From positions 62,001-126,000 of the forward strand of contig NIVC01001743.1 of the NCBI GenBank assembly GCA_002269645.1: a stretch of DNA of 64,000 nucleotides. Direction: 5' to 3'. A model generated the notes under the pieces. It did not search any database and was not told where the DNA came from. It saw only the letters and a list, made by a program, of their open reading frames with translations. This document shows, in pieces, positions 720 through 57,106 of this stretch; position 1 is the stretch's first letter, and each line of letters opens with the position of its first letter. A program made the translations under genes and the position numbers. Source of the DNA: Macrostomum lignano (taxonomy: Eukaryota).

Positions 720-10652
<9,933 letters not shown>

Positions 10653-12519: not shown

Positions 12520-12940
12520 CCCTGGGATCCCGGTGCACCAACCCTCATGGGTTCTAATCCCCTGGGATCCCGGTGCTCCGACCCTGGTGCTCTAATCCTG
12601 GGATCCCGGTGCACCAACCCTCATGGGTTCTAATCCCTGGGATCCCGGTGCTCCGAACCTGGTGCTCTAATCCTGGGATCCCGGTGCTCCGAACCTGGTG
12701 CTCTAATCCTGGGATCCCGGTGCTCCGAACCTGGTGCTCTAATCCTGGGATCCCGGTGCTCCGAACCTGGTGCTCTAATCCTGGGATCCCGGTGCTCCGA
12801 ACCTGGTGCTCTAATCCTGGGATCCCGGTGCTCCGAACCTGGTGCTCTAATCCTGGGATCCCGGTGCTCCAAACCCTCATGGGTTCTAATCCCCTGGGAT
12901 CCCAGTGCTCCGACCCTGATGCTCTAATCCTGGGATCCCG
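12520..12940 (+). repeat. 36/40-bp minisatellite array, left copy
   Basis: Units CTGGGATCCCGGTGCTCCGAACCTGGTGCTCTAATC and CTGGGATCCCGGTGCACCAACCCTCATGGGTTCTAATCCC. Confidence 0.95.
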
Positions 12941-12984
12941 GTATTACGGTTTAGAAACTCCGGGGCTCTGGTCGGTTTTGGGTC

Positions 12985-13255
12985 GCCGATCCGGAGACTG
13001 CAAACGGGCTGGGATCTCCGACCGGAGATCTTAAAGGGTTTAGGATCTCCTTCGGAGAATACAAACGGTTAGGGATCTCCACGATCAGAGATCCCTAACC
13101 GTTGTGGGATCTCCGGAGCATGGTCAGGTCTCCCTATCCGGAGATCCAAAACCAGATTCTGTTATCCCCTCGGAGATTCTACACCGTTTGCCGATCTCCG
13201 TCACGAGTGCAAAAACTAAGGTTTGGTTTAGGATCTCCGGTTACCGATCTCCCCA
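12985..13255. repeat. array of spaced inverted repeats GGAGATC-N13/14-GATCTCC
   Basis: Clear pairs at 12993/13013, 13024/13044, 13054/13074, 13087/13108 and 13172/13193, plus degenerate ones. The centres differ between units. Confidence 0.8.
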
Positions 13256-13545
13256 TTTTTATAAAGTCCGAAATCGTAATCGTGCAACGAGTGTTGCTGT
13301 AGTTTCCTTCTCTTAACCGTTTAACAATTTTCATCGAAGCATAAAAGGTAGTAAAAATCGCTAACAATGTCAGTCATTTTTTCCATTTCAAGACATTTTA
13401 CATTCCGTAAGATCGTAGTTTAACGTTTCACTGTAGCCAGTATATTTTGCAGCTGTCATGCACCATACCAGGGCAAAAACATGAGCTAGAAACCTTTGAT
13501 AAATACTCGTACGAGTGCCGTCAGTTCAGAATCCCGCATGCGATT

Positions 13546-15066
13546 CTAATGAAAAACTGGAGATTCGCTCAACCATTGTACTTGTAGAAAGCACTTCTTG
13601 AGATGCCAGCCATTGACACGTCTAGTGAGTCCTCCTAATCGATATACGTTGCGACCGAGGCACCTCGTCACGATGTAGACCTGCTGACTCCAGGTGTATC
13701 GCATCTTGCCACCCTTCCGATCATCCCTCCGCAGATTTCGAAGCCGAACTCTGTCTCCTTGCTTTAGCTCTTGAGCTCCAGCAGCCGAAACCAAGTGACG
13801 CTGTCGCATCCAAGGTCCTTGGTCGCATCTTTTCTTGAGCGATCTTGATTCTACGCGCAATTAGTTTTCGCGCTGCGGCTCGCTTCTTGTCCTTGTTGGC
13901 AAGCAATCGCCTGTTGATTTCCATCGGCTCCGGAACCGAAGCCAGTGCTGCGGCATGATCGCCTAGCAATGGCTCAAAGCCAAAGGCGGCTCTAAAGATA
14001 AATGGAGGCATATGAACTAACATTGTCTGCTACAGTATAGAAATATGCTTTATAAAATATACTTGATTCTCTATAAACTTTATTACTTTCATATTTTACC
14101 TGCACGGCGAGAAGCCTGTCACCGAATGTCGGCGGCTGTTATATGCGAGTTGAACATCATTCAGCATGGAATCCCAGTTAGTTGGTTCCTCAGAATCACA
14201 CCGCTTTCTCAGTAGATTAATGCACGTTTGGTTGAGGCGCTCAGTCTGACCGTTTGTCTGGAGAAAATTAGTGATCTACTCGTACTTAAAAAATGATGCA
14301 CCACTACTACATAATATCAGAAGCATAAAACATTACTGTTAAGGTTACCTGTGGGTGGTAAGCACTGGTCACTCTTCTTTGCGTTCCTCCCGACTGCAGC
14401 AGGGCGTCCAAGACAGAGTTGCAAAACTCGCGTCCTTGATCGCTGAGAATGACCAATGGCCAGCCAAAAAGCGCGAAGATGCTCTTTAACTCTGCTGCGA
14501 TAGTCAGCGCTTTGATGTTCGGCAACGCCCGAAAAATGGCAAATTTTGTAAACTTGCAGCATACCGTTTGGTGTGGTAGTCGGCATTGTGATGCAGTCCA
14601 TGCACAAAAAGCCGAAGAGGCGCTCTGCATTCCTGGGAACTTCAATGGGATGCAGCTCCTTCTGCGCTGAAGAAAACTTCTTGTTGACCATTTCGCACCT
14701 CGCACACGCCTGAACCACAGCTTTGGCAATCGGTGTTACAGGTATATCGGCATAGTACCTTACCGTGAAAAGACTCACGGTGCTGTTCACGCCAACATGG
14801 CTCCCTTGAGAATGAAGGCTCAAAACCTTTTCTTGCACTTCTTGCTCGGTAAACAGCACCTTGCGTCTGTCTTCGGGCCGCATGCGCTTACTGCCATCTT
14901 TATTTTTCACCATGTAATACAATGCTCAATCGTGAATGCTAAAATTTCTGCTCTTTTCCCTGATGCGCCTCTTCAAATTGCTTTTCTCTCTCGAGTTCAA
15001 GTCAACAGGAATTTGTGCGTAGTCATTGTTCAGTACATAAAAGAATATTTGATTCAAAGTAGCCAT
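13546..15066 (-). pseudogene. Ginger1/GIN1-like Gypsy-type integrase/transposase gene with 2 introns, inactivated
   Basis: ATG at 15066 (MATLNQIFFY..KRRIREKSRNFSIHD*ALYY), HHCC finger (HSQGSH..CARC), DDE core (MDCI, SDQGREF, SAYHPQ|TNGQTERLNQ), NWDSMLNDVQLAYNS..TGFSPC|RAAFGFEP and a C-terminal GDRVRLRN..KMRYTW SH3-like module. GT-AG introns at 14258-14348 and 13992-14099 restore the frame. Lesions are an in-frame TGA near 14930, a frameshift near 14560 and a 19-bp insertion at 13803-13829. No gag, RT or RNase H is adjacent. Confidence 0.85.
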
Positions 15067-15514
15067 TTGACAAGTAGAAAGTAAAGATAACCGCAAACAG
15101 ACAATTACTCACAATAAGTTTTATTTCACTGCTTATATATGACAATCAAATCCCTCGACAAATGCACAGAGACGAAAAATGATGCGCAAGTCTGGCCAAC
15201 CCTAAATTTAGCCCTCACAGGGCATGCAAATGTACGATGTACTAGATGGATCAACTCATCTAAAAAGTTGCGCAAGCTATAGGCTGCTCACGAGCTGGGC
15301 GTTCTAGAATCAGAGAAATGTAATTTATCTCTTATCTTCCAATTTTCTAAGATAATAATACTCCGGAGAGTCTAGCATGGCGGCGATCTGTAACCTTATC
15401 TTATGTCATGGTTCCTGATATCCATCCGTGAGGGCGATTGTAAAATCGCGTAATTTTTTTGGTTGGATCGCCGAGCCGGAGATCCTTAACTCCGGAGAGC
15501 AGAAACCCTAACAC

Positions 15515-15990
15515 CGGTGCTCCAACCCTCATGGGTTCTAATCCCCTGGGATCCCGGTGCTCCGACTATGGTGCTCTAATCCTGGGATCCCGGTGCACCA
15601 ACCCTCATGGGTTCTAATCCCCTGGGATCCCGGTGCTCCGACTATGGTGCTCTAATCCTGGGATCCCGGTGCACCAACCCTCATGGGTTCTAATCCCCTG
15701 GGATCCCGGTGCTCCGAACCTGGTGCTCTAATCCTGGGATCCCGGTGCTCCAAACCCTCATGGGTTCTAATCCCTGGGATCCCGGTGCTCCGACTATGGT
15801 GCTCTAATCCTGGGATCCCGGTGCACCAACCCTCATGGGTTCTAATCCCCTGGGATCCCGGTGCTCCGACCCTGGTGCTCTAATCCTGGGATCCCAGTTC
15901 TCTGACCCTGGTTCTGTAATGCCTGGGATTCCGGTGCTCTGTTTCAACCCTTGTGCTCTAATCCCCAGGGATCCCAGCGCTCCGACCTTA
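15515..15990 (+). repeat. 36/40-bp minisatellite array, right copy (same family and orientation as 12520-12940)
   Basis: Same two unit types, decaying after about 15900. Confidence 0.95.
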
Positions 15991-16497: not shown

Positions 16498-19400
16498 ATG
16501 AGACCTGGTCACATGAGCAGCAATGCTGAGCAGCAGAAACGAACGAACCCAGCAGACGATGCAGCCGCAGCAGAGGTTGGTCGAGTCGCTCGAATCAGGC
16601 AGATGTTTCAGGCCGCTTCCGCTGCGGAATCTCATCGCCAGTCCAATTTGAAATCGACCAACAATTCTAGGCTGACAGCCTCATCGTCCGGGATGCTGCA
16701 GGGTCAGGGAGTCAGACAGCAGCAGCAGCAGCAGAAGCAGAAGCCATCGAGTGCCGAATTTCTCAAAGTTCGCTTGAGACGAACGCCAAATGTGGCTGCC
16801 ACTGGACGAGAGAAGCCTCAGGTGCAAATCCGATCCATGCTGGCCAATAGGTGAGGGAGTAACTTAATTACTATGCAGAGTGAGAGAGTCGAATTGAGAT
16901 TTTGAGTGAGATGAGAAGGGTGGGATAGAGAGTGAGATAGAGAGTGAGATGGAGGGTGTGATGGAGAGTGAGATGAACAGGGAGATGGAGAGTAAGACGG
17001 TCGAGGGTGAGATGGAGGGTGAGATAGAGAGCAAGGTGAATAGTGGTAGAGGGTGAGATGGAGAGTGAGATGGAAGGTGAAATGGAGAGTGAAATGAACA
17101 GGGAGATGAACAGTGAGATGGAGAGCGAGACGGTCGAGGGTGAGATGAAGGTTGAAATGGAAAGTGAGATAAGCAGTGAGACGGAGGGTAAGATGGAGAG
17201 TGAGATAGAGAGTTAAATGAACAATGAGATGGAGAGTGAAATGGACAATGAGATAGAGAGTGAGATAGAGAGTGAGATGGAGAGTAAGACGAAATAAGGG
17301 ATCATTAAGTGAGTCTGCTCGGCAGAAAAAGCTACACTCATATTCGACCGGAAGAGGTCATATCAAAACCAGTTACTTTGGCTTAAAAGCTACGCAAGCT
17401 CAGCTGAGCCCAATCGGCAGCCCAAACCGCGTAATTCCTCCTTGGCTACTCAAAGGCCTCGCGCATGTATTGGAGTTTGCAGTACAGCGCGCAGGGGGGT
17501 TGTAAAAAACAGATTTTGCATTTCTCCAAGTATAAGCTGCATGGATGCGCACAGGGGACAGCATTGGAGCGGCCGGTATGCTAAATATAAATAATGCACG
17601 TTACTTCGGCCAGAAAGTATAAATTATATATTACTGTAGGCGCTCAATATTGAGGCCAGGAAAGAGAGTTAACTAACCGTGTGAATAAAAGCCTACTGCG
17701 GGAGTTTGAAATTGTGTTTCTAAGTGAATTAGTTTTCGACCTTGGAAAGGCAGGATATTGGAACTTACTGAGAACAATGGCCTGTGCAGCACCAGGGCTA
17801 AAGGGAAAGGAAAGTTTATATAATTAACACTACATTTACTAAAAGATGCTCTTAGAATTTACATGCAGTACATGCTACTCGTTAGTACAGGTAAAGAAAA
17901 TCGCACACGACTATATTTCTCTGGATCAATTTATAATATTGCGCTACAAAAATTCGTTTATAATATTTTTTCTTAATTTACCGATAACCGCTCTCTTAAT
18001 ACTCTGATAATCTCCTTCTAAATCTACCGAAAATTAATCGCCCTCTTAATCCACCGATAATCTCCTAAACCCACCGACAATCTCTTTGTAAGTCCACCGA
18101 TAATCTATTTGTAAATCCACCGTCGCCCTCTTAATCCACCGATAATCTCCTAAACCACCGACAATCTCTTTGTAAGTCCGCCGATAATCTCTATGTAAAT
18201 CCGCCGATAATCTCTTTGTAAATCAACCGATAGTCTCATTGCAAATCCACCGATAATTGCCGTATAATTGCCTTATTGCCTTAATCCACCGATCATCTCC
18301 TTGTAAATCCAACAATAATCTCCTTGTAAATTTACTGATAATCTCCTCGTAGATCCACCGATAATCTCCTTGTAAATCCACCGATCATCTCCTTGTAAAT
18401 CCACTGATAATCGCCTTCAAAGGTTTTCTTCAAACCTTTACCTTTTAATCTTTTTTTAAAAATAGTCGCTTTTTCGCACATGCACTACTTAAATAGCAGA
18501 CAATCAGTAGCATAGAAAGAATATCCAGCTAAATATTAGTACTGAAGCCGCGCCCGCACCCACTATTGCAGCGACGCCACCGCAGCCTCCAGTAGCGAGG
18601 ACGAATCCGCGGCAGCCTCCGTCCTCGGTGTTGTCGCAGAACTCGAACGTCGAGCGAATCGGCTGCGTCAGCTGACGATAGAGCTGCCGCGATGGCCGGC
18701 CGACGGTCTCGGAGTCGGACTGGCGGGCGTCGGCCTGACGGCAACCGGAAGCGGCGGCGGCGGCGGCGGCAGCGAGCGGATTGGCGTCTACGTGAAGTCG
18801 CTGACGCCAGGCGGCTGGGCTGAGCGGGACGGCCGCATCCGACTGGGTGACCAGGTGAGTCACAGCTGAGCAGGACTGATGGCGCACAATTTAACTCTCC
18901 TGTTGCAGTTTAAGCTCCCCCTGTTCCAATTTAAGCTCCCTCTGTTGCAATTTAAGCTCCCTCTGTCGCAATTTAAGCTTCCTCTGTTGCAATTTAAGCT
19001 CCCTCTGTTGCAATTTAAGCTCCCTCTGTTGCAATTTAAGCTCCCTCTGTTGCAAATTAAGCTTCCTCTGTTGCAATTTAAGCTTCCTCTGTTGCAATTT
19101 AAGCTTCCTCTGTTGCAAGTGAAGCGCCCCTGTTGCAAGTTAAGCTCCTCTGTTGCAATTTAAGCGCTCCTGTTGCAAGTGAAGCGCCCCTGTTGCAATT
19201 TAAGCGCTCCTGTTGCAAGTTAAGCGCCCCTGTTGCAAGTGAAGCGCTCCTGTTGCAAGTGAAGCGCCCCTGTTGCAAGTTAAGCGCCCCTGTTGCAAGT
19301 TAAGCGCCCCTGTTGCAAGTGAAGCGCCCCTGTTGCAAGTGAAGCGCCCCTGTTGCAAGTAAAGCGCCCCTGTTGCAAGTGAAGCGCCCCTGTTGCAAGT

Positions 19401-29388: not shown

Positions 29389-31017
29389 TCAAAGCTCTTC
29401 GTGATTGCGCAACGCTTCGCCAAAGTCCGTAGCCTGACTGCCGGCAAAGATGTCGTGATGGTCCAGAATCTCCTGTTTTGATAAGCGGCCGTCTTTGTCC
29501 AAATCAGCTTGGCTGAACAGGTGCTTGGTCTCCGCGTCCACCTGCAGTTTGGGGGGGGGGTGAAATTTTAGTAGAGCTGATGGGAGAAAGTCTGTGGGGT
29601 GGGGATTAAGGGCGATTCTATGGGGGGTTGAGGGCGATTCTGTGGCGGATTGAGGACGATTCTATTTGAGATTAAGGGCGATTCTATAGGGGGATTAAGA
29701 GCGGATTCTATGAGGGGATTAAGGGCGATTCTATGGGGGATTAAGGGCGATTCTATGGGGGATTAGGGCGATTCTATGGGGGGATTAAGGGCGATTCTAT
29801 AGGGGGATTAGGGCGATTCTATGGCGGATTGAGGACGATTCTATTTGAGATTAGGGGCGATTCTATAGGGGGATTAAGAGCGGATTCTATGAGGGGATTA
29901 AGGGCGATTATATGGGGGATTAAGGGCGATTCTATGGGGGATTAGGGCGATTCTATGGGGGATTAAGGGCGATTCTATAGGGGGATTAGGGCGATTCTAT
30001 GGCGGATTGAGGACGATTCTATTTGAGATTAAGGGCGATTCTATAGGGGGATTAAGAGCGGATTCTATGAGGGGATTAAAGGCGATTATATGAGGGATTA
30101 AGAGCGGATTCTATGAGGGGATTAAGGGCGATTATATGGGGGGATTAAGGGCGATTCTATAGGGGGATTAGGGCGATTCTATAGGGGGATTAGGGCGATT
30201 CTATAGGGGGATTAGGGCGATTCTATGGGGGGATTAAGGGCGATTCTATAGGGGGATTAGGGCGATTCTATAGGGGGATTAGGGCGATTCTATGGGGGGA
30301 TTAAGGGCGGTTCTATGAGGGTCAACGGCGATTCTATGGGGGAATAAGGGCGATTCTATGGGGATTAAGGGGATTAAGGATAAATTCAAAACTATATAGT
30401 CAAGAAATGCCTTAGTTCAGGCACTAAAACTCACCTGATCATAATTAGTCGGCAGTATCCAGGCCGATACCTCAGCCAGATCAAGCTTGCCATCCTTATT
30501 AGCGTCCCGCTGCGATCGGAACGTGTCCCGCTCCTGCTGGACCCAGTCCGGCTCCGGCTCCCCGCTGTCCTTGCCCGACCACATGTCGCCGATGTATTCG
30601 GCTTCGTCAATCGCGCCGTCGCCGTTACGGTCGAGATCTTCCAGCGATTCCAAGGCGACAAGTTCGCGCATGTGGGCAGCCTCCTCCGGATGGGCGAAGT
30701 CGGTGAACTCGGCCAGGCTCAGCAGGCCGTCGGCGTCTCGGTCGGCGCGTTGCCAACGGCGACGCTCCCGTTCGATTGTCTTGGTGGTGTGCGGGCCTGG
30801 GGATGGGCCGAACACCTTCGTCTGGGGGATGGGAAGGGGGCTGATCATGCTCATATCTGCATGTCTGTGTATTTATAGCCACAGTGGCCTGTCTGTGTCT
30901 GTCTGTCTGTCTGTCTGTATGCCTGTCTGTTTGATTTAGTTTCTGTCTGCCTGCCCGTATGCCTGTTTGTCCTAGTATCTGTCTGTCTGTCTGTCTCTCT
31001 CTGTCTGTCTGCCTGCC

Positions 31018-31048
<31 letters not shown>

Positions 31049-31064
31049 GTTTGTCTGTCTGCCA

Positions 31065-31124
<60 letters not shown>

Positions 31125-31702
31125 TTCTATCTGTCAGTCAGTCAGTCTTTGCCTTAGTAGTCTGTCTGCACATCTAGCTCTCTGTCTTAGCATATCAGGC
31201 ATACACATAGTGCCCAGCTGCCCGCAGCCTGTTCTGCACATTGCGTTCATACATGAATTACGCCAGTCACCTTATAGGTATCCCAGTCGATCTTGGCGTC
31301 CTCCTTGCCGTCGCTATAGTCGTTAAACTGCCTTTTGCTGTTCTCGCGCACATACCGTTTGGCAATGTAATCAATCCAGCTGTACATCTCCTGCTGCGTC
31401 ACGAAACCGTCGCCGTCTTTGTCAATCTTGTCAACAATTTTAGCCAAAGCCGCGGTGCTCTGCTCCGGCGTCATCTGGTCGAATTTCTCCGAGTCCTCGT
31501 GGCCGAGAAATGCCTCATGATCAAATTTGTGATCGTCGGCTAGAGGGTCTTCGTTGTGTGGCAAATCGCTTAGCGGCTTCTCACCCTTGGCTATGCGATC
31601 TTTGCTGCTGACATGGAGAGCCGGGTTGCCGTAGCAACTGTTGCTATGGAGCAGTGTTACAATTAGCAGTAGAATTACTGCAGAGCAAATCTTGGAACCC
31701 AT
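29389..31702 (-). CDS. CALU: calumenin/reticulocalbin (CREC family) EF-hand ER protein, 3 exons, about 323 aa
   Basis: Exons 31271-31702, 30435-30821 and 29389-29541. Signal peptide, DHEAFLG, multiple EF-hands ([60 protein letters not shown]), [11 protein letters not shown] and a C-terminal HEEL ER-retention-like signal. CALU versus RCN cannot be resolved. Confidence 0.93.
29590..30370 (+). repeat. 21-22-bp G-rich minisatellite in calumenin intron 2
   Basis: Unit GGGGGATTAAGGGCGATTCTAT, with a ~178-bp higher-order period (marker GCGGATTGAGGACGATTCTATTTGAG at about 29645, 29824 and 30002). Confidence 0.95.
30885..31190 (+). repeat. (CTGT)n / (GACA)n microsatellite in calumenin intron 1
   Basis: Direct reading. 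Confidence 0.95.
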
Positions 31703-34700
31703 GCGAGTGCGTGACTGCATGAACAGAGTAAAATCAGAAGATTATAAATCAAATAAAATTGGCTCAGCAGCTGAGTGGCCACAAAGCCCTGGTTAGCTCT
31801 CATGCAAAGCCACATTATACTGGGGTTTGTGCAAAAAAACTAACTAATTCAGACCTATGAGCTGGTTTTCTTAGTGTCACAATTGTAATAGCATTGGTAT
31901 ATTGGGTCCAAATTCAGGATTATTTTATATTAAATGCCAACAGTCTATATTTAAGGTTTAGTAAGGTATGAAATAGGGATTGGATGATATCACATTTCTG
32001 CATCGAGATTTAAGATTAAGCAGTTAAGCCTAATTAGTATATAGTAGGCCTATTTACACTATTATATCTATCATTGCTAATTAATATTATTTGTTAAATG
32101 TGTACAATGATGATAATAGAAGGAAAAACAAATAATATAAAATATTGAGCTTGTTAGTAATTTGATGTGTATTTAATATAACACTGACGTACTGACAATA
32201 TCCTAGTCACCAATAGTCACAGAGTCACAAATCTTAACTTTTGAAATCTTGAAACCAAGATTGAGATTGAGAAAATTGCCAAGGTCCTGACAATTAAGAT
32301 CGAGATCTTATTTGATCCCTAGTATGAAAATAGGTCTAATGTAGAATAGCTATACAAAATAATATTTTGCAACTGCCAACTATACAAAAAATATATTTGT
32401 GCCTTTTGATACATATGAATATCAACTTGACTGCTTCTTGATTAAGCCTATTTTCTCTTTTCTTTATTTTTTTTCCTTTTTATTTTCCTGGCAATCTTTC
32501 ATTTCACTTTTGTATAGTCATGCTTAGACGCAACCTAGGGATTCACCTGACCATTTCTATTGACAACACACACACATGAGTCACTATTGGACAGAATAGT
32601 AGTCATGTGACTGCTCTTAGCCAATAGCAACTTACATGTGTGTGTTGCCAATAGAAATCGCTGAGTGAATCCCAAGGTTGCATATGCATGTGTATAGTTA
32701 ACTATTTTTTTAGAATTTTGTAATTTAAATGGGTATAAAATGATGTGGCTTAAAAGATTTATATTAGGCACAAACTCTAACTATCATTTTGGTCAATAGA
32801 CTTAGTCATGGTCAATGGTCATGGTCAATGTAGGACAAATTCAATTAACTTATCAATATGATTTATAGTCAATATCAGGTGATATAACTAATTTGTCTTT
32901 ATAGTTTAGGCTGTCTTATTGAATTACCAAAACTATGGCTAGCCATAGTGGCTAATAGCCACCTACTTACATCTAGAGAGGGCCTGAAAATTTGGCTAGA
33001 ATTTTGGGTACCCAAAATTTTGGGCATTTTCATTTCAAATTTTTGGGTATAGTTTCAATTTTGGGTATTACACTTTTGGGTAGATTGATACCCAAATTTT
33101 TAAGCTCATTGTATTATATAAGATTCATTAGAACCATTTGCTATATATGCTACACTTTCTATAAAAGGTTTGGGTCTGTCCTAATTTCATTATTGGGTCA
33201 GATAAATGCTTGAATGAAATGTGCAATCTATAGTGACTCAGTCAAAACAGGGTAAGAAAAAAACAACTTGGAAGGTAGGTGAGATTAATCACTTTAACAC
33301 TAGAGTCTAGACTAGGCACTGCTAGGGCATGGATAGGATACCAGACATAGTCACAATTAGTGAATTAATCTATATAAATTGATAATAAGCCTATAAACTT
33401 AATATAGAAAATAAGAGGCAAATCTAAATCTGCACCATTTAATTCCTCCCTCTTCTTTGTATGTTTGTCACTTCAGCCAACCCCTCCTCTTTTCTCCCCT
33501 AATCCTTCAATGTTTGCCACTTTAAACCCTCTTTCTCTTTTTTTCTCTCTTTATAAATTCATAATGGAATTTTATGGGTTTGCCTTGCCACCTAAACTTG
33601 TGGGCTCTACTGATCACACTCTCCTTTCATTATTTGATTCCAAACCCCCAAGTTGGCAACCCTCAAACACCAAAATCTGAGCCTAGTCTTGTGCAAGCTT
33701 TATATTGATTGAAAACAAATAAAATTGAAATGCTTGCCAGGTATATTCTTGTTGTGTTTGCTTTCAACATGGATTCTAAACATCTTTTCAGAGTTGAGGG
33801 ACTCATTGTGACTAAGAAGAGGAATTGGCTTTTAGCTAAAACCTCAGCTAGCTATTGTTCATTGAAGCTAATTTGAACTTAGTCTTAAGGCTCTAAATAT
33901 GCTTAATGAATAATGATATTCTTGAATATTTCAAATGAATATGATTGAAATATAAACTATATCTTAATTGCATGTATGCTTAATTGCATTGTTGGCTTTA
34001 AAATTTTGGGTTTTAGGTAGTAGCAAAAATCTTTTTTGGGCCATCTCTATCTTTATCTATAACCATTGTTTATTGTTGCTATTATATAGTCATTTCTTTC
34101 CTTAGGCTAGAAAAAGACTGTAAAAGGGAACTAGGCCTACCTGAACATATTTTAGGGCCTAGTGATAAGAAAATAGGCCTAGGCCTAGGCCGCCTAGTAT
34201 GCTAAAATACAGATTTTCTATGCTACAATACTAACTAAGGCTGAGATAGAGCTTACTATTGATTTGTGCCAACTGTCTGCTACTCCCATGTGAAGGGCCT
34301 AAACCCTATGGACTAGGCCTAGGCCTATGGTGATTGATTAAGACCAATAGCAAGAACAACAATGTGAAGATTAGGCCTCTATTTTCACCTGGAACTTTAG
34401 GCTTTAGCCATTGCCCATTGCTGACATAGACTACATTGGTGGGCAAATGGGGAATACATAGGCCTAGCTTAGTAGATAGACAGGGACAGCTTGCTTAGGA
34501 CTAGGCCTACTAAGCAGTAAGCTTAAAAGCTTAGTTCCCTTTGTAGAAAGATTTTGGCTTTAAAAAACCATTAGCATTAGCCAAATTCCAAATACACTAT
34601 TTCCTAGGCCTATCGTAATAGTCCTAATTCCGAAACTAACATGACTAGGTAGGCCCTAAGACCTAGGAATAAATGAAATCTATTCCTATATCCTAAATCT

Positions 34701-39740: not shown

Positions 39741-39880
39741 ATGTGCGATAATGCTTTTATGTCAGATCTTTAAGCTTATGTAATGGAATCAAACACGAAT
39801 TATGAATTATTGCCACAATAATTTGTCTGCAACAAATTGCTTCTTTATGTCTGCTGCATGCCATTCAGCCAGCAATTATC

Positions 39881-42838
39881 ATGCTATCCGTCTTACTTCG
39901 TCAGTGTCGGGTTCCCCGTTCCACTCCGACATCAGGTCGCTTATTGTCAACCTCGGCTAGCAACATCCTTGACGAGCACCTGCTGCACCGAAGTCCTGTG
40001 CACACGGAGTTTTTCCAGGCCAGCCTGCCTCATCTGAAAGTCCCAGATCTCAATGCCTCAGTAGAGAAGTACCTGAACTCGCAGAGGCCGCTGCTAACAG
40101 ACGAGCAGTTCTCCGCCACCACATCGATCTGTCAGGAGTTCCTCAAACAGGACGGACCCGAGCTGCAGCGCCTCCTGTTGGACTATGATAAATCCAATAG
40201 CGATGGCAACTATGTGAGCGACTTCTGGTTTGACATGTACCTGCGCGACAGGCGTTCTCTTGTGCTCAATCATACACCGTTTCTGGCGTTCTCCGCCGCG
40301 CCTGAGCAGCCCGATCCACTGGATAGGCTGACCAACATGGTCTATTCGTCCGCCAGGTACCAGCTGACCTATGCTAATCGGGTACTGAAGCCCGAAGTGT
40401 ACTTTCTCGATCCGAAGCTGAGCGAGGAAAAATTTTATCAGAGAATGAAGATGCTCTCTAGGTGAGAGTTCAGTTCCGTTATATATCGAGATTTGAACAG
40501 TAAAGTACAATAGAATTTGTTGAAAAATCGAACCTTGGACCACACCAAAATTTTACACCCATAATGGATGTTTACATGTCTGCTACTCTACTTATAGTAA
40601 AAATATAGGAAGGATAAGAATAATATAATAATTGATTACACTTGCCCTGATGGGGGGCGGCGCATCTGAAGGTAGCGTACGGCTGTTCAGCCCAATGACT
40701 GGGGGGGGGGGTCGCCACACTCACCCTTAATTACCCCAGTTAATGTTGGAACCCATTTTACAGCTGGGTCACCTGAAGCAATGCAAAGTTAAGTGGCTTG
40801 CTCAAGAATTGTTCCAAGTGGGTCGGGAATCGAACCACCGACCTTTCAGTCGTTTTTTTTTACAAAAAGTTTAACAACACCTCCCCAATGCACTCTGGCA
40901 GGATTCCCGGCCATTCTCGGCTGGCTTGGGCCGCCGCCTATTTGCACAAAGCGTTCCCGCTCGACATGTCCCAGTATCCCAATTTGATGGCGTCCACTCG
41001 GCTGCCTCAGACTGGCCGGGACTCGCTTCGACGCTATCCGGACTCGAGGCATATTGTGCTCATGCGTGGCGGCCGGTTCTACAGCTTCGATATTATTGAG
41101 GTGATATATCTGTAGCGATTTTTTATTTAGTAGCCGATATGTAGCGATTGTTACATTTAGTAGCCGATATGTAGCGATGGTTATTTCGGTAGCCGATATG
41201 TAGCGATTCTTATTTTCAATAGCCGATATGTAGCGATTATTATTTCAGTAGCCGATATGTAGCGATTGTTATTTTCAGTAGCCGATATGTAGCGATTGTT
41301 ATTTTCAGTAGCCGATATGTAGCGATGGTTATTTCGGTAGCCGATATGTAGCGATTCTTATTTTCAATAGCCGATATGTAGCGATTATTATTTCAGTAGC
41401 CGATATGTAGCGATGGTTATTTCAGTAGCCGATATGTAGCGATTGTTATTTTCAGTAGCCGATATGTAGCGATTGTTATTTTTCAATGGCCGATATAAAG
41501 TACATATGTACTTTTGCCCGAAATTCAGCCCGACGGCCTCAGCATCGTCCCGGCCTCAACAATCCGGGCTCGCCTGTCCGAATGCCTGGCCGATTCGCGT
41601 CCGGCCGCCGAGTTTCCGGTTGGCGTCCTGACCTCGGCCGACCGCGACGTCTGGACTAAAGAGCGGCAGAAGCTGGCCCACGCCTCCAAGACTAATTCTG
41701 CCTCGTTAGAGGCCATTGACTCTGCGCTGTTCCTCGTCTGCCTAGACGAATCCCAGCAGACCAGCGACTCGGCGCTCTGTCACGCATTCCTGCACTCTGG
41801 CGACGGTGCCAACCGATGGTGGGACAAGAGCCTGTGCCTCATGGCCATCCTGCCGGTTGGCGAGTTCGCAGTCAGCTTTGAGCACAGCTGGGGCGACGGA
41901 GTGGCCGTGTCTCGGTATTTCAACGAAGTGTTCAACGACTCGAATCGGTGAGTTCGGGGCGTTGCTATTGTGCGCTCTTTATTAGATCCGCATGAGATTC
42001 CTCAATGAGATTAGATTAGATTACTGTTTAGATACGACCGTGAGATTTCAATGAAAACTCAGTCAGAAAAGAACCAACCGGGAGGTCTCCAATTAAATCT
42101 CCAATGAGACTAGATACGACCGTAAGATCTCAATAAAATCTTCCTATGAGATTAGATACTTACGCGAATGTTCTCTTTGCGATTAGATAGATGCCTTCCT
42201 CAAGTGTTAATGCGATCCTACGATTAGGTATATTTCATTAGATTTCACTAAAATCTCTCCATGATATTAGATGCCTGAACTCTCATCCCCAACCCCCTTT
42301 CCCCAGCCGTCCCGGCCTCTCCTCAGGCCAGTCCGAATCCCTCGCCGCAGACTCAGCCTCTGTCCGGCGGCTCGAGTTCGATTTGGACGACAGCCTGAAG
42401 GCCTCCATAGCAACCTGTCGCGAGCAGCTCTCAGCCCGGACAGCCGATCTCGACTTGGACTTCTGGCAATTCGACGGCTTCGGCAAGTCCAGCGCCAAGC
42501 GGGCCGGCCTCAGCCCCGACTCAGTGTCGCAGACGGCCATCCAGCTGGCCTACTACTGGCTGAGCGGCGGCGCCACCGCCCCCACCTACGAGTCCTGCAG
42601 CACGGCCGCTTTCCGGCGCGGCCGAACCGAGACCATTCGATCCGCTACCTCGGCTACGAAGGAGTTCTGCCGGCTGGCCGGGGGCAGCGAGCCCGCACCG
42701 ACCGACCAGCTGCTGGCCGCGCTGAAGGCTGCGTCTGATGCGCACTCCACTCTGACTAAGGATGCCGCTATGGGCAAGGTGAGGCTTGGGGCAGACAGAC
42801 AGATAGACAGACACACAGACAGGCAGACAGACAGACAC

Positions 42839-42869
<31 letters not shown>

Positions 42870-42940
42870 CACAGACAGACAGACATACAGACAGACACAC
42901 ACACAGACAGACAGACAGACATACAGACAGACAGACAGAC

Positions 42941-42997
<57 letters not shown>

Positions 42998-43022
42998 CAC
43001 ACAGACAGACAGACATACAGAC

Positions 43023-43067
<45 letters not shown>

Positions 43068-43074
43068 CACAGAC

Positions 43075-43119
<45 letters not shown>

Positions 43120-43178
43120 CACAGACAGATAGACAGACACACAGACAGACATACAGACAGACAGACATACAGACAGAC

Positions 43179-43259
<81 letters not shown>

Positions 43260-43286
43260 CACACACAGACAGACAGACATACAGAC

Positions 43287-43327
<41 letters not shown>

Positions 43328-43358
43328 CACAGACAGATAGACAGACACACAGACAGAC

Positions 43359-43395
<37 letters not shown>

Positions 43396-43442
43396 TACAG
43401 ACAGACAGACAGACATACAGACAGACAGACAGACATACAGAC

Positions 43443-43535
<93 letters not shown>

Positions 43536-43907
43536 TGCTCAAAGGCAATGCCCCAAACCGCTCCCCAGGGCTGGGACCGGCACTTATTCGCCCTGCGCTG
43601 CATGTCGGAGCGCCGTGCCGGAGGCGCCGTCCCCCGCCTGTTCACGGACCCGGCCTATCGCAAGATAAACGAGATCGTGCTGTCCACCAGCACCCTGTCC
43701 ATGCCGGCCGTGAAGATCGGCGGCTTCGCCCCGGTCAGCCCGGCTGGCCTTGGAGTCGGGTACGCCATCGAGGACTCGTCGATGGGCTGCGTGGCCACGG
43801 CGTACAAGTCGAGCAGCAGGAGCTCGGCAGAGTTCATGCGGTGCTACCAGCGGGCCTGCCTGCTGCTTGCTGATGTTATTGGCAAGGCGTTGGATGCTAA
43901 GAAATAA
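39881..43907 (+). CDS. CPT2: carnitine O-palmitoyltransferase 2, 5 exons, about 669 aa
   Basis: Exons 39881-40461, 40902-41100, 41529-41947, 42307-42778 and 43569-43907. Mitochondrial presequence, [38 protein letters not shown], catalytic [42 protein letters not shown] and GGFAPV. Confidence 0.96.
40615..40890 (-). mobile_element. tRNA-derived CORE-type SINE in CPT2 intron 1
   Basis: The minus strand reads B-box GGTTCGATTCCC, then TTGAGCAAGCCACTTAAC...CAGCTGTAAAATGGG (resembling the CORE/MIR GGGCAAGTCACTTAAC...CTGTAAAATGGG), then a TTA-rich tail. Confidence 0.7.
41110..41490 (+). repeat. 31-33-bp minisatellite in CPT2 intron 2
   Basis: Unit AGTAGCCGATATGTAGCGATTGTTATTTTC. Confidence 0.95.
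42793..43535 (+). repeat. (GACA)n microsatellite filling CPT2 intron 4
   Basis: About 740 bp of a 790-bp intron. Confidence 0.98.
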
Positions 43908-49960: not shown

Positions 49961-50822
49961 TTAATAGGAGAAGGTGTCCAAAGCCGCTTGAAGTTTGTTG
50001 GCGATCTGAAAGATTATATAAGAGAAATATTAAATTTAACAGTTCGTTTAATTTTTAAATTTACAACCAAACTAAACGAAGCAAACGGGAAGTGACTGAG
50101 ACACGGAGTGACTGAGACAGGGAGTGACAGAGACAGGGAGTGACTGAGACAGGGAGTGACTGAGACACGGAGTGACTGAGACAGGGAGTGACAGAGACAG
50201 GGAGTGACAGAGACAGGGAGTGACAGAGACAGGGAGTGACTGAGACAGGGAGTGACAGAGACAGAGAGAGACAGAGACAGGGAGTGACAGAGACAGGGAG
50301 TGACAGAGACGGGGAGTGACAGAGACAGGGAGTGACTAAAAAGGAGTGACTGAAATAAAGCGTCAGTGCCGCTCACCTCCTGGTGGAAGCGCACCTGCTC
50401 CCGCAGGAAGTTGGCCATCATGGCTTTGTAGTCGGCGTCCACTTCGCGCCGGAAGTTATTCATCTCAGCGCACTGGGCGGCGCTGACCAAAGCGGCCCGA
50501 CGCGTGGTCTCCTGGGCTTCGGCCGGCGAGATGCGGCCCTCCTCCAGGCCGCGCTGGCAGTCGCGGGCGGTGGCGATGGAGCCGCGGCCGATGCTGATGA
50601 CGGCCGGCAGGCAGGAGATCAGGCCGCTGTACTCATGCAGCGCCTCGGCCAGCTGGTCCGAGTCCGAGCGGGGCTGCTGCGCCCACAGCTCCGACACCTG
50701 CTGATAGGACTGCCCGGCTGCGTGCATGGCCTGGGACAGCTGGTCCAGCTCTGCGGGGGGGGGGCGGACAGGCTGGGACAGACAGACAGACAGACAGACA
50801 GAAGACAGACAGACAGACACTA

Positions 50823-50859
<37 letters not shown>

Positions 50860-50882
50860 CACAGACAGACACACAGACACTA

Positions 50883-50947
<65 letters not shown>

Positions 50948-51156
50948 CACAGACAGACAAACAGACATTAAGACAGAGAGACAGACAGACAGACAGACAC
51001 ACAGACACACAGACAGACAGACAGACAAACAGACACTAAGACAGACAGACAGACAGACACACAGACAGACACACAGACAGACAGACAGACAGACACACAG
51101 ACAGACAGACACACAGACAGACAGACAGACATTAAGACAGAGAGACAGACAGACAC

Positions 51157-51203
<47 letters not shown>

Positions 51204-51240
51204 CTAAGACAGACAGACAGACAGACACACAGACAGACAC

Positions 51241-51279
<39 letters not shown>

Positions 51280-51322
51280 CACAGACACACAGACAGACAG
51301 ACACACAGACAGACACACAGAC

Positions 51323-51357
<35 letters not shown>

Positions 51358-54300
51358 CACAGACAGACAAACAGACACTAAGACAGACAGACAGACAGAC
51401 AGGCAGATAGACGGACAGACAGACAGCAGTTACTCACTGTTATTCGGCACCAGACAGGCCGCCTTCTCCATAGCAAAGCAGGCGTCAGCAATTCTTGAAT
51501 ACTCTTTCCTAATATTATTTTCGCATTTCTTCGAATGCGACAGAGCGGTGTCCATGGCCAGCCGGGTGGCCGTGTCCATCTCGGTGGCGAATCCGTCGAA
51601 CGCATCGGTGTAGCGCTCCATGTCGGTGAGGTCGCAGGGGGCCGACAGGCGGATGGTGTGGTACACCTGACCCCGACTCAGCTTGTCCTGCTCGGCCCGG
51701 CGTTTGCCTTCTTTCCAGCGTTTGCCCTCGTCGGTGCAGGTTAAGAAATGTTGGAATACCAGCGACGGGCCGGTGACGGGATGGGCGGACATCCGGTTCA
51801 TCCAGCACTGCAGCTGGCGCATCCGAGCGTTGATGAAACTCTCCTCGTAGCGGCCTGATAGAGCAAGAGATAAAATATTTTTGAAAATTTTCTCAATTAC
51901 AAGAAATGCGCTATCGTGCTTCTCTCAGTACAAACAACGAGTTGACTTACTAAAGTAAAATTAAAAGGCGACAAAGATTTTAACGTCGATTTTTACGTAC
52001 ATGAAAAATAAAACAATACGGTGGTTGTTAAACAATTATACAACTGGGTGAAAAAACTTAACACATATGATCAAAGATAATCACATATTATGTACCTCAT
52101 TTTACGCTATTTCCTCGGCGATTTCACTTTGAACAGATGTCTTGTAAAAATTAAGGTCACGCTTGTTGGTTATTTTTTCCACTGAGAGTAGCGCGTAACA
52201 CAAGAGTTAAGCATTGACTGTCAACTAAAGAGGGTTGGCTGATTGTGAAAATGGGGTGGGGCTGAATTGGATCGCCAATAAAATACACAGATAACAACCC
52301 AGCAGAGGATCGATAAGGGTGTGATAATGGGGTGGGGCTGAATTGGATCGCCAATAAAATACACAGATAACAACCCAGCAGAGGATTGATAAGGGTGTGA
52401 AAATGGGGTGGGGCTGAATTGGATCGCCAATAAAATACACAGATAACAACCCAGCAGAGGATCGATAAGGGTGTGATAATGGGGTGGGGCTGAATTGGAT
52501 CGCCAATAAAATACACAGATAACAACCCAGCAGAGGATTGATGAGGGTGTGAAAATGGGGTGGGGCTGAATTGGATCGCCAATAAAACACACAGATAACA
52601 ACTTAGCAGAGGATTGATGAGGGTGTGAAAATGGGGTGGGGCTGAATTGGATCGCCAATAAAATACACAGATAACAACCCAGCAGAGGATTGATGAGGGT
52701 GTGAAAATGGGGTGGGGCTGAATTGGATCGCCAATAAAATACACAGATAACAACCCAGCAGAGGATCGATAAGGGTGTGATAATGGGGTGGGGCTGAATT
52801 GGATCGCCAATAAAACACACAGATAACAACTTAGCAGAGGATTGATGAGGGTGTGAAAATGGGGTGGGGCTGAATTGGATCGCCAATAAAATACACAGAT
52901 AACAACCCAGCAGAGGATTGATGAGGGTGTGAAAATGGGGTGGGGCTGAATTGGATCGCCAATAAAATACACAGATAACAACTTAGCAGAGGATTGATAA
53001 GGGTGTGAAAATGGGGTGGGGCTGAATTGGATCGCCAATAAAATACACAGATAACCACCCAGCAAAGGATTGATAAGGGTGTGAAAATGGGGTGGGGCTG
53101 AATTGGATCGCCAATAAAATACACAGATAACAACTTAGCAGAGGATTGATAAGGGTGTGAAAATGGGGTGGGCTGAATTGGATCGCCAATAAAATACAGA
53201 TAACAACCCAGCACAAGATCGATAAGGGTGTGAAAATGGGGTGGGGCTGAATTGGATCGCTATTAAAACACGCAGATAACAACTTTGTCACCCCCAGCTG
53301 TCACCAGAAATAAATTAATTTGTTTTATAGTTTTTAGAAAAATATTTTTAGTTAAGAATCCAAATATTATTATTTAGTTTAAACGATTTCACCATTAATT
53401 CGTGTGGTCAACTGGTTTGAAGTGCGAAGGCGTAGAATTAATTAATATATCTTGATTAAATGGTTTTAGAAAATCTAACCTTATCTCAAGCAAACAGAGT
53501 GATAAAAACACACTGTAGACTACACCAAATATGACGAAAAATAGGGAAATTTTACATAAACTATTTTTTGTATCTACACTACTGAAAGACGTGGCATAAA
53601 ACAAAAGATGATAACAGATACCTCGAATATTTTAACAAATTTATTATACGATTAAATTACTCAATTTGGCATTCTCGAGGTACAAATGGCCCAATTTGTT
53701 GTAGGCGCTGCTTCTCGAACTCGCCGCATTGCCTAATAGTTAATTACAGCAATAATATTATTCAATAATATTATCTGCAGAGCAACATTTTTAGATTCTC
53801 CGAAATATTAATAGGCAATAAATTTATAAAAGCAGTCACGGTGCTCACCTGTCACCTGTTTGTCGGGCAGCGGGGCACCGCCACGCAGGGAAACTTGTCG
53901 CACAGCTGCTTGTGCAACCAGTCAAAGTGCTTGTAGCGCCTGCTGACCACTAGATCAGGGTTCGCCTGATGATTGGGGATGGAAGGATGGATAAGTGAAG
54001 GTGGGGTGGCGGATTAGTGAGGATGGGATGGAGGATTAGTGAGGATGGAGTGGCAGATAAGTGAGGATGAGGTACACTAGCGGATTGGTAAGGATAGGAT
54101 AGCGGATTAGTGAGGATGGGATAGCGGATTGGTAAGGATAGGATAGCGGATTAGTGAGGATGGGATAGCGGATTAGTGAGGATGGGATAGCGGATTAGTG
54201 AGGATGGGATAGCGGATTAGTGAGGATGGGATAGCGGATTAGTGAGGATGGCATAGCGGATTAGTGAGGATGGGATAGCGGATTAGTGAGGATGGGATAG

Positions 54301-57106
54301 CGGATTAGTGAGGATGGGATAGCGGATTAGTAAGGATGGGATAGCGGATTAGTGAGGATGGGATAGCGGATTAGTGAGGATGAGGTAGCGGATTAGTGAC
54401 GATTAGAAAGTGGTAAGCGGATTAAAGCGGAGTAGCGGACTAGAGCGGACAAGGAAGCAAACTAAGAGATTAGATATAAAAGTACAAGGAATGGTAGCTT
54501 CCCCAAAAAGACAATCAGTGTGCTCAGCAACACGCACCGAAGTGGAGATCTGGTAGGCAATGTAGCTCTTCAGACCCCTCATTTTGCTGGCCTTGGACGG
54601 ATCCGTGACCTTGCAGGTGAAGGCCTGCTCCCGAGGCTGCCAGGCCAGCTCTTGACCGTCAAGCTGAGTTGCAAATAAATCAATGTTATTATGCACCAAG
54701 CTATCAGATTTCCTAAATGAAATCTGTAATGATGAATTTGGCTAGATAGAACTCACAACAACTGTCACAGTGTCAACGTCTGTCACGGGGGCACCTCGTC
54801 CGTCAGTAAAAATTCCTTGATGCCAGCAACTCTGAGGTGATAAAAATACAAAAATTCCGAGTTCACAGTCTTCAGAATCAGAGACAAAATTTTTAATAAG
54901 GCCCAGAAACTGAGGGATCTGAGAGGCTGGCCCAGCAACTGAGGGATCTGGGAGGCTGGCCCAGCAACTGAGGGATCTGGGAGGCTGGCCCAGCAACTGA
55001 GGGATCTGGGAGGCTGGCCCAGCAACTGAGGGATCTGGGAGGCTGGCCCAGCAACTGAGGATCTGAGAGGCTGGCCCAGCAACTGAGGGATCTGGGAGGC
55101 TGGCCCAGCAACTGAGGGATCTGGGAGGCTCACCCAGCAACTGAGGATCTGGGAGGCTGGTCCAGCAACTGAGGATCTGGGAGGCTGGCACAGCAACTGA
55201 GGGATCTGGGAAGCTCACCCAGCAACTGAGGATCTGGGAGGCTGGCCCAGCAACTGAGGGATCTGGGAAGCTCACCCAGCAACTGAGGATCTGGGAGGCT
55301 GGCCAAGAAAACTCAACCGCAGCAAACGCACGAGGCTACAACAGTACACCAGTCTATTTTTATCGTGCAGAAAGGGCGGATTTCACTTGCAAGAGTGCAG
55401 CAATGGAAAAAGAAGCGATATATGTCTATGCATTTCATTCACCATATTAAGTAAACAGCAAGTCGTCGTGCATAAAAGAAACTGCACAGGAGACAGCAAT
55501 AATTTGAAGTAGACAGAATGCCATACAAGTCCTTTAAATATTAAATATATCTATGATTATCACAGAGAGTGACAATAGGCTGGAATCCCCCCCCAAAAAT
55601 GGGATTCACTTGTAACCAAGGAAAATCCCTCACTTAGGCAGGCCGCGGATGGTCTTTCGGTTGTTGGCCTCAGCCGAGGTGGTGGACAGCGTGCTGGAGA
55701 CCGCCTTGCGCAGGGCTGGGGCGCCAGCGGGACCCTGCGGTTGTGGGCGAGTAAGGCAGCAGCAGTGGGGCAACGTGGGATGAACTGGAGCAGCCTTCTG
55801 TCCGCTTTCTTGACCTCCTTTATCCGCCCTCTAGTGACCTCTCTTATCCACCCTGTAGTGACCTCCCCATATCCGCCCTGTAGTGACCTCCCCATATCCG
55901 CCCTGTAGTGACCTCCCCATATCCGCCCTGTAGTGACCTCCCCATATCTGCCCTGTAGTGACCTCCCCATATCCGCCCTTTGATGACCTCCCTTATCCAC
56001 CCCTCTGGTGACCTCCCTTATCCACCCCTCTGGTGACCTCCCTTATCCACCCCTCTGGTGACCTCCCTTATCCACCCCTCTGGTGACCTCCCTTATCCAC
56101 CCCTCTGGTGACCTCCCTTATCCACCCCTCTGGTGACCTCCCTTATCCACCCCTCTGGTGACCTCCCTTATCCACCCCTCTGGTGACCTCCCTTATCCAC
56201 CCCTCTGGTGACCTCCCATATCCGCCCTCTAGTGACCTCCCTTATTCTAATCCCTGACTTCTCTAATCTTCCCTATGGACTTTTAATCCACGATTTAGAC
56301 ATAACTGCTAATCCTCACCATCTCAAATTCCTCAATCGGCACTAGCTGATCCCTAATCCTCCAATTCCGCATTCTCACCTGCCCAGGTGTCCCAGCAACC
56401 GAGAAGCGACTACCCTGGCCCGCCCGATTGGTGACTGCAGCTCCGCCGCCGCCTCTAGCGACATTACGCGGGGTCACGGCGCTGGCACCGCCGTCATCGT
56501 CATCGGAGCTCCAGCTCTCATCAGCGAAGAAGCTCTCCTTCGGCGGTGGCGGAGCTACTGGCGAGGCCTGCTGCTGCTGGAACTGCTGGTAGTGCCGCGG
56601 CTGCGGAGCCAGGTTCTCGTAGGATGGCGGCGGCGGGGGCGGCGGCGGCGGCGGTGGGGGTATCGACGGCTCAGGAGGCGACAGCAGCTCAACGAAGCTC
56701 TCGGGTATGTAGCCCTCCTGACCAGAGGCAGACCGGCCGAGCCACCAGCCTTCATAGCCGTCGCCGACGTACTGCAAATTAGTTTTGGTTAGAAAGAAAA
56801 TGCAACTTACCTATGAAAGAAACCGAAGCACAATCAACGTAATTTTGGGTAAACAATAAGAGTAACTATAACTGTACTGTCAAGGATAAATGCCTCGTCA
56901 GCTAATTAGTACTACATCTGTATTATTTGTGTGGACATTTTTGTGACTTAGTAGGGCTGGATTTTGCGCATGTACAAGCATATGTCTAAGGAGGCAGCAG
57001 CATTGATCCAATTCACACTCACCTGAGAAACAACAGTCAAAACTTCGCCAGTACGAAACGACAATTCATCCTCATTTTGAGAAGCAAAGTCGTACATTGC
57101 TCTGGC
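49961..57106 (-). CDS. SNX9: sorting nexin 9/18/33 family (SH3-PX-BAR), first coding exon not located; two apparent -1 frameshifts
   Basis: Exons 57023-57106, 56379-56771, 55634-55734, (55318-55335), 54757-54831, 54538-54663, 53849-53965, 51438-51854, 50377-50750 and 49961-50005. SH3 [25 protein letters not shown]; [37 protein letters not shown]; [18 protein letters not shown]; [23 protein letters not shown]|IANKL. The symbol is family-level only. Confidence 0.92.
50090..50350 (+). repeat. 16-bp repeat (GAGACAGGGAGTGACT/A) in the last SNX intron
   Basis: Direct reading. Confidence 0.92.
50775..51425 (+). repeat. (GACA)n microsatellite filling an SNX intron
   Basis: Direct reading. Confidence 0.97.
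52245..53285 (+). repeat. 76-bp minisatellite, about 13-14 copies, in an SNX intron
   Basis: Unit GGGTGTGAAAATGGGGTGGGGCTGAATTGGATCGCCAATAAAATACACAGATAACAACCCAGCAGAGGATTGATAA. Confidence 0.96.
53975..54410 (+). repeat. 22-bp minisatellite (GAGGATGGGATAGCGGATTAGT)
   Basis: Abuts the acceptor at 53966. Confidence 0.95.
54905..55310 (-). repeat. 29-30-bp minisatellite related to the SCAI intron 8 array
   Basis: Sense (minus-strand) unit TCAGTTGCTGGGCCAGCCTCCCAGATCCC. Confidence 0.93.
55820..56240 (+). repeat. 25-bp minisatellite (CCTTATCCACCCCTCTGGTGACCTC)
   Basis: Direct reading. Confidence 0.95.

Follow-up and report, generated by a model that had tools for sequence, protein, structure and literature searches.

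The locus analysed here raises the question of how a Gypsy-type integrase gene can stand alone in the genome of the flatworm Macrostomum lignano while being interrupted by two spliceosomal introns. It lies in a 64,000-nt stretch of contig NIVC01001743.1 (hereafter the window; all coordinates without a locus prefix refer to it). The original prediction, made from the letters of the window, was a decayed Ginger1-type element or a lost domesticate. We conclude with high confidence that the locus is a complete yet broken copy of an element with many copies, CCGG flanks and a two-intron integrase gene, likely a cut-and-paste transposon of the Ginger1 kind. The ends of the element, its CCGG duplications, its copies at independent sites, its splice junctions and the DD35E triad of open-frame siblings were all read directly.

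Structure of the integrase gene

The integrase open reading frame (ORF) is located on the minus strand and extends from an ATG at 15066 to a TAG at 13546-13548. Exon 1 (14349..15066) encodes a YPYY-type motif, an H2C2 zinc finger and the first two catalytic aspartates (codons at 14596-14598 and 14439-14441). It is followed by intron 1 at site s1 (14258..14348; 91 nt, GTAAC...CCAG), a phase 0 GT-AG intron that separates YHPQ|TNG. Exon 2 (14100..14257) carries the catalytic glutamate (14240-14242), with DD35E spacing in the sibling copy L003, and intron 2 at site s2 (13992..14099; 108 nt, GTAAA...TTTAG) is also of the GT-AG type, in phase 2. Exon 3 (13546..13991) encodes a helical linker and a C-terminal module with RRDDRKGG, possesses no literal GPY motif and lacks a protease domain. 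The GC content of the introns (32% and 25%, respectively) was low compared with that of the exons (48-52%). A TATA-like sequence on the same strand (15131..15141), about 70 nt upstream of the ATG, may serve as the promoter.

In the Pfam search, the broken pieces of the window copy matched rve (E = 9e-7) and Integrase_H2C2 (E = 0.008), both under the curated cut-offs; in sibling L003, rve exceeded its cut-off and H2C2 stayed below. None of the 74 window ORFs scanned by domain search contained a reverse transcriptase (RT), RNase H or gag domain, no RT or LTR was found for the element, and six Gypsy-like pol ORFs of the host genome (G000; five of the six with YxDD) matched the window solely in the integrase, all in agreement with the initially noted absence of gag, RT, RNase H and LTR.

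The window also contained host genes for SCAI (1604-3883), ribosomal L11 (26847-27356), an EF-hand protein (29392-31741), a carnitine acyltransferase (39806-43904) and an SNX9-like sorting nexin (50017-56810), as well as a minus-strand segment without Pfam match (18549-18869) that we take to be a PDZ-like exon.

Splicing of the introns

Intron joints were read in contigs of several sequencing runs; the RNA label of runs X1-X5 is a guess, and every junction came from a single study. In family A, to which the window copy belongs, a contig of run X3 (depth 2.5) joined 14138-14257 directly to 14349-14419, with intron 1 precisely removed, and a contig of run X2 fused the end of exon 1 to exon 2 in a deletion copy of the L010 type. 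Another X2 contig, from an A-like relative, omitted intron 2 at a depth of 38, its register being confirmed by a loose end, while a second X3 contig kept intron 2 unspliced. Runs X1 and X6 showed no intron joint on family A among the matches listed. In the related family B (L066), probable RNA runs contained GT..AG joints of 93 nt (X2, X3), 77 nt (X2, X4) and 86 nt (X2), corresponding to its three predicted introns at sites s0, s1 and s2. An intronless processed copy of family A or B was also sought in the assembly and rejected, as the exon-junction patterns of s1 and s2 gave 0 matches in G000. Family B further comprised many internal-deletion derivatives (L164-L173; L066:2137-3085), one deletion joint being present in 4/4 runs examined, and its fragments have been built into UniRef gene models labelled as EGF-like proteins (P0001-P0003).

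Both GT-AG introns of the window gene are real, as read from contigs of probable RNA runs of one study. The proposal that they restore the integrase frame was borne out by their coordinates, phases and low GC content and by their exact skipping in contigs, and the junction reads for which it had called were obtained for intron 1 in family A and for intron 2 in close relatives.

These junctions bear on the idea that the gene is a remnant of a Gypsy LTR pol gene, or of a Maverick/Polinton integrase, carrying two chance insertions. Such an origin would fit the 29-46% identity to the host's own Gypsy-like pol integrases; moreover, an AlphaFold model of family C (pLDDT 78) submitted to a fold search returned an integrase fold and nothing more, with the Ty3 and foamy-virus (PFV) integrases as the best solved relatives. 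It is nevertheless highly improbable, given the gene's own ATG, the lack of RT, RNase H and LTR, and the exact GT-AG skipping. RT or LTR remnants, or introns that were simple insertions in a Gypsy pol gene, had been named at the outset as observations that would count against the prediction; both were looked for and neither was found. Unlike a Gypsy LTR retrotransposon, the window element is a 2.57-kb unit bounded by terminal inverted repeats (TIRs) and a target-site duplication (TSD), without LTR, gag, RT or RNase H. Mavericks differ in their 6-bp TSDs and AG...TC ends (available part of PMC6839031), compared with the 4-bp CCGG TSD and TG ends found here, and are described without a zinc finger in the accessible part of PMC2836005.

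Ends, target site and copies of the element

The complete Ginger1-like element of family A spans 12942..15513 on the minus strand (2,572 bp). It begins with TGTTAG, terminates in ...TAATA (TGT...ATA) and is bordered on either side by CCGG (left duplication, 15514..15517; right duplication, 12938..12941), where neighbouring satellite units have one CCGG. The left TIR (15490..15513), starting with TGTTAG, was identical to the right one (12942..12965) at 16 of 24 positions, the latter ending in ...TAATA with TA in place of CA; weak gapped similarity extended to about 50 bp. Subterminal repeats of the GGAGATCC type (13011..13238, minus strand) are putative transposase-binding sites. The target array is a CCGG-rich minisatellite, one half of which has a 36-nt unit (12521..12941) and the other a 76-nt higher-order unit (15514..15895). 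Single-CCGG empty units occurred in the satellite, the best match to the insertion point having 2 mismatches in 50. The minisatellite unit (CCGGGATCCC..., in both halves) loosely resembled the subterminal repeats of the element. The original prediction had found the integrase gene and had overlooked the element ends, the CCGG duplication and the many copies.

A genome search with the element yielded at least 81 matches, from the 40 of 161 candidates that were scored; some of them were full-length copies and others derivatives with internal deletions. The exact left-end pattern had 29 matches with 16 distinct flanks, 14 of which ended in CCGG, and the right-end pattern had 25 matches with 15 distinct flanks, 13 of which began with CCGG (reversed patterns, 0 matches; CCGG background, 0.002 per base); about three pairs of these "distinct" flanks (L186/L192, L187/L194, L217/L222) probably represent one insertion each. 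A 13-nt right-end pattern was dropped as unspecific (136 matches vs 166 in the control). Among the 15 distinct right flanks, the element ended with TA in 9 (inward TATTAC) and with CA in 6 (inward TGTTAC). Since the TA right end was present at many independent sites and in the related family E, it is tolerated. The flanks of copy L002 were those of the window copy, and L002 is the same insertion; family-A copies located elsewhere were 1.3-2.2% substitutions apart, and an older subfamily 11-12%.

At two loci (L028:1021-4468 and L067:1565-3168), Ginger1-like elements were arranged in tandem or nested with a common CCGG, one CCGG lying inside the left end of another element, as explained by a target that is regenerated through its own duplication. 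A further family-A copy (L068:1910-4856; G000:C3474) contained an insert of 2.9 kb, presumably Crypton-like and marked by a 5-bp direct repeat, whose ORF had a weak match to the QRICH1 domain below the cut-off (E 7e-6).

The prediction of a decayed Ginger1-type element is sustained by the TGT ends, the CCGG duplication, the copies at independent sites and the OTU-bearing nearest non-host proteins, and its second branch, a lost domesticate, is not. A host gene of the GIN1/GIN2/Imagin kind, domesticated and later lost, would account for the introns, the spliced transcripts and the purifying selection between families, and GIN1, GIN2 and Imagin are themselves intron-bearing, Ginger1-derived integrase-like genes (PMC2836005, PMC3424704, PMC12863088, as far as accessible), with three conserved introns in the GIN genes (PMC2836005). 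The window element differs from them in keeping both TIRs and the TSD, in its many copies at unrelated CCGG sites, in its many internal-deletion derivatives and in its intact DDE triad, whereas Imagin has lost DDE and inverted repeats according to the available text of PMC12863088. Such a domesticate is thus a scarcely credible source of the locus.

Lesions of the window copy and proposed mode of movement

The three lesions foreseen in the window copy were all confirmed by comparison with sibling copies. The first is a premature TGA at codon 47 (14926..14928, minus strand), where siblings have a sense codon. The second (14564..14565, minus strand) is a 20-nt deletion relative to siblings that shifts the frame and is not an intron remnant. 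The adjacent 12-nt GTATGCTGCAAG (14553-14564), initially read as the possible relic of a third intron, codes for V-C-C-K in siblings, which have 20 extra coding bases just upstream of it (16 in L026/L029). In families B and F, a real intron lies a few codons from GTATGCTGCAAG, exactly where the 20-nt deletion starts. The third lesion (13803..13829, minus strand) is a frameshifting 19-nt insertion (13811-13829) made of an 8-bp duplication and CAAGGACCTTG.

This last lesion is likely the excision footprint of a P element, judging from the 8-bp duplication around CAAGGACCTTG and from the P-like element L258, whose ends read CAAGGAC and whose TSD is 8 bp long. Sixteen P-like loci were sampled, of which 13 had called TIRs and 7-8-bp duplications and one (L258) ended in CAAGGAC. 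G000 contained many P-like elements of several families (L245-L260; 3.4-4.0 kb, CA-starting TIRs, 7-8-bp TSDs), with 150 scored matches to PF21788.

Because the same 19-nt frameshift was common to the window copy and to the L006-L009 copies at another CCGG site, a copy of the window type likely moved in trans after its frame was broken; gene conversion could be another route by which common lesions spread. The window copy is a non-autonomous, dead insertion that, with its stop at codon 47, would need transposase in trans. In L003 and L004, all three exons were open, and the spliced product comprised 440 aa with D157, D216 and E252.

An intact copy would be transcribed from the internal TATA-like promoter and spliced to give a 440-aa DDE integrase-type transposase. 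This protein would bind the short TIRs and the subterminal repeats and excise the element, whose two 3' ends, one finishing in CA and the other in TA, would then be joined to target DNA at a CCGG, the two joints being staggered by 4 bases. Strand transfer of this kind would be as in retroviral-type integrases. Movement would proceed through DNA, so that the introns would persist. Excision and reinsertion by the transposase may be reflected, indirectly, in the lesion-sharing copies at different CCGG sites.

Comparison with Ginger1 and other named systems

In the accessible part of the founding paper (PMC2836005), Ginger1 elements are described with a 4-bp CCGG or CCGT TSD, a TGTNR 5' end, TIRs of about 40-270 bp, and proteins of about 500-800 aa with 0-4 GT-AG introns per family. 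The proteins possess a YPYY motif ahead of the H2C2 zinc finger, a DDE core, a GPY/F motif and a C-terminal OTU or Ulp1 domain, for which the single-copy Ginger1-1_BF is given as sole exception. The mode of excision is called unknown there.

Against this description (PMC2836005, same part), the window family shared the 4-bp CCGG TSD (14/16 left and 13/15 right distinct flanks), a left end (TGTTAG) fitting TGTNR, and a single Gypsy-integrase-like transposase gene with GT-AG introns at low copy number in an animal host. Also shared were the H-x5-H...C-x2-C zinc finger with the D157, D216, E252 triad in L003, and a YPYY-type motif in exon 1, F-Y-x(5)-Y-x(3)-P...F...G-A-L-Y-Y, which is degenerate and was judged by eye, and which aligned with OTU-bearing protein matches. 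It differed in several respects (PMC2836005): an OTU or Ulp1 domain was found in none of six families (no Pfam match), the ORFs terminating about 40 residues past the W...Y of the C-terminal module; the proteins were 440-444 aa long; GPY was replaced (W-S-Q-Q-V-Y), the RRDDRKGG...W...Y module aligning although families A, B, C and F have other residues in place of G-P; the TIRs were imperfect and about 24-30 bp long; the right end was TA in families A and E; and the host phylum lies outside the four species listed. Non-host protein matches (P0004-P0006, P0010) had an rve+H2C2+OTU architecture. In a FastTree analysis that contained no named Ginger1, the element grouped with unnamed OTU-bearing proteins apart from the six host Gypsy-like integrases (0.875-0.95), and a chromodomain protein (P0012) fell inside the group. 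The element is a Ginger1-like variant rather than a strict Ginger1 member, because it has no GPY/F motif, no protease domain (OTU/Ulp1), short imperfect TIRs and one TA end.

Ginger2/Tdd elements have an AT-rich RTATAY target and no YPYY, whereas the window family has a CCGG target and a YPYY-type motif. IS3EU/GingerRoot and IS481EU are likewise integrase-related DNA transposons tolerating TA or AYA ends, but the available parts of their descriptions (PMC10045372, PMC6839031) give them TSDs that are 6 bp long or variable, and no HHCC/YPYY; relative to them, the CCGG-specific 4-bp TSD and the H2C2 finger are the window element's own features. No description of these families was among the papers listed in literature searches; Repbase and Dfam may already contain them.

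Related families and the history of their introns

Protein searches and fetched regions revealed at least six CCGG-flanked families (A-F) in the genome, plus a decayed locus (G). Family examples measured 2.1-2.6 kb, the family D example with both ends being a 1.4-kb deletion copy, and none of these families (at least six) had long TIRs, an OTU/Ulp1 domain or the literal GPY motif. UniRef matches were 68-75% identical and labelled Macrostomum lignano, and families A and B had a dN of 0.12 and a dS of 1.64. A third intron site, s0, lies in phase 1 in the Gly preceding x-x-Y. Introns were present at s1 and s2 in family A, at all three sites in family B, at s0 and s1 in family F and probably at s1 and s2 in locus G, and at none of the sites in families C, D and E. 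The intronless junctions were contiguous codons without scars, and family C included one single 444-aa ORF. Apparent gaps in family D were considered as introns and rejected, since they were due to insertions, P-like in L071 and L075 and solo-LTR-like in L065. The latter (L065:2560-2755; TG...CA ends, 5-bp duplication) lies within a family-D-like copy.

Phylogenetic trees placed family F outside A-E with a support of 100/97 (99/98 with G included), a position that weakened under a mixture model (81/77, L082 inside); apart from the A+B grouping, no clear support was obtained for the order in which A+B, C, D, E and G diverged. The AU test rejected a single clade of intron-bearing families (p = 0.02 and 0.002) and did not reject C+D+E as one clade (p ~0.1), with groups chosen after the first trees had been seen and trees built on reduced sequence sets. 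All tree rows were projected on family C, a possible bias, and short or poorly projected rows were left out (A_L012, A2_L059, I_L074, D_L077, F_L174, x_L133). Both F introns matched those of B in codon and phase, a coincidence with a chance of about 0.005 even among 36 MAG|R sites.

Precise loss is favoured over parallel gain by the rejection of an intron-bearing clade and by this coincidence of the F and B introns. The s0 and s1 introns are probably old in this lineage; families C, D and E would have lost both precisely, and family A would have lost s0, most likely through recombination with reverse-transcribed mRNA. A reverse-transcriptase route, suggested by analogy, has been proposed for CACTA elements (available part of PMC4158355), where in-frame intron loss between families of one DNA-transposon group was likewise credited to reverse transcriptase. 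That case concerns another superfamily, in plants and across species, whereas the losses proposed here would fall within a single animal genome, for which splice junctions were read.

An intronless ancestor, with parallel gain at the same sites in F and A+B(+G) or with ancient recombination between families, appears rather unlikely as an account of the intron history. Consistent with it, none of 80 non-host metagenome Ginger1-like loci had YHPQ|GT (80 of 495 relatives were kept, and the scan favours intronless loci), two non-host loci (L141, L156) showed apparent introns at other sites, most intron sites resembled proto-splice sites, and intron sequences showed weak similarity at best from one family to another (z 0.3-3.3). 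The shared codon and phase of the F and B introns argue against it, as does a single loss in the C+D+E ancestor, which the AU test did not reject. One of these non-host loci, L141:2409-7508 in a metagenome record, was a Ginger1-like element of 5.1 kb that has long TIRs and CCGG flanks.

Returning to intron loss, a further reading can be put forward tentatively: the families may form a distinct Ginger1 sub-lineage, active in recent times, that lacks the protease and GPY and has short, asymmetric TG...TA ends, the intronless families having arisen by spliced-cDNA recombination between the TIRs. If so, a DNA transposon would have been renewed through a cDNA step.

Significance

Ginger1 elements occupy the boundary zone between Gypsy integrases and DNA transposons. 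As an insertion, the window copy is dead and unremarkable; what is of interest is the compact lineage, its intron series and its naturally open copies. These families indicate that spreading requires neither an OTU/Ulp1 domain nor the literal GPY motif, and they supply a within-genome series of intron loss. Its target being strictly CCGG, its transcripts spliced and some of its copies naturally open-frame, this compact lineage, likely of a laboratory flatworm, makes excision testable without reconstruction; if the tentative reading above holds, its open-frame spliced copies would offer a direct test of DNA excision by a Gypsy-type integrase.
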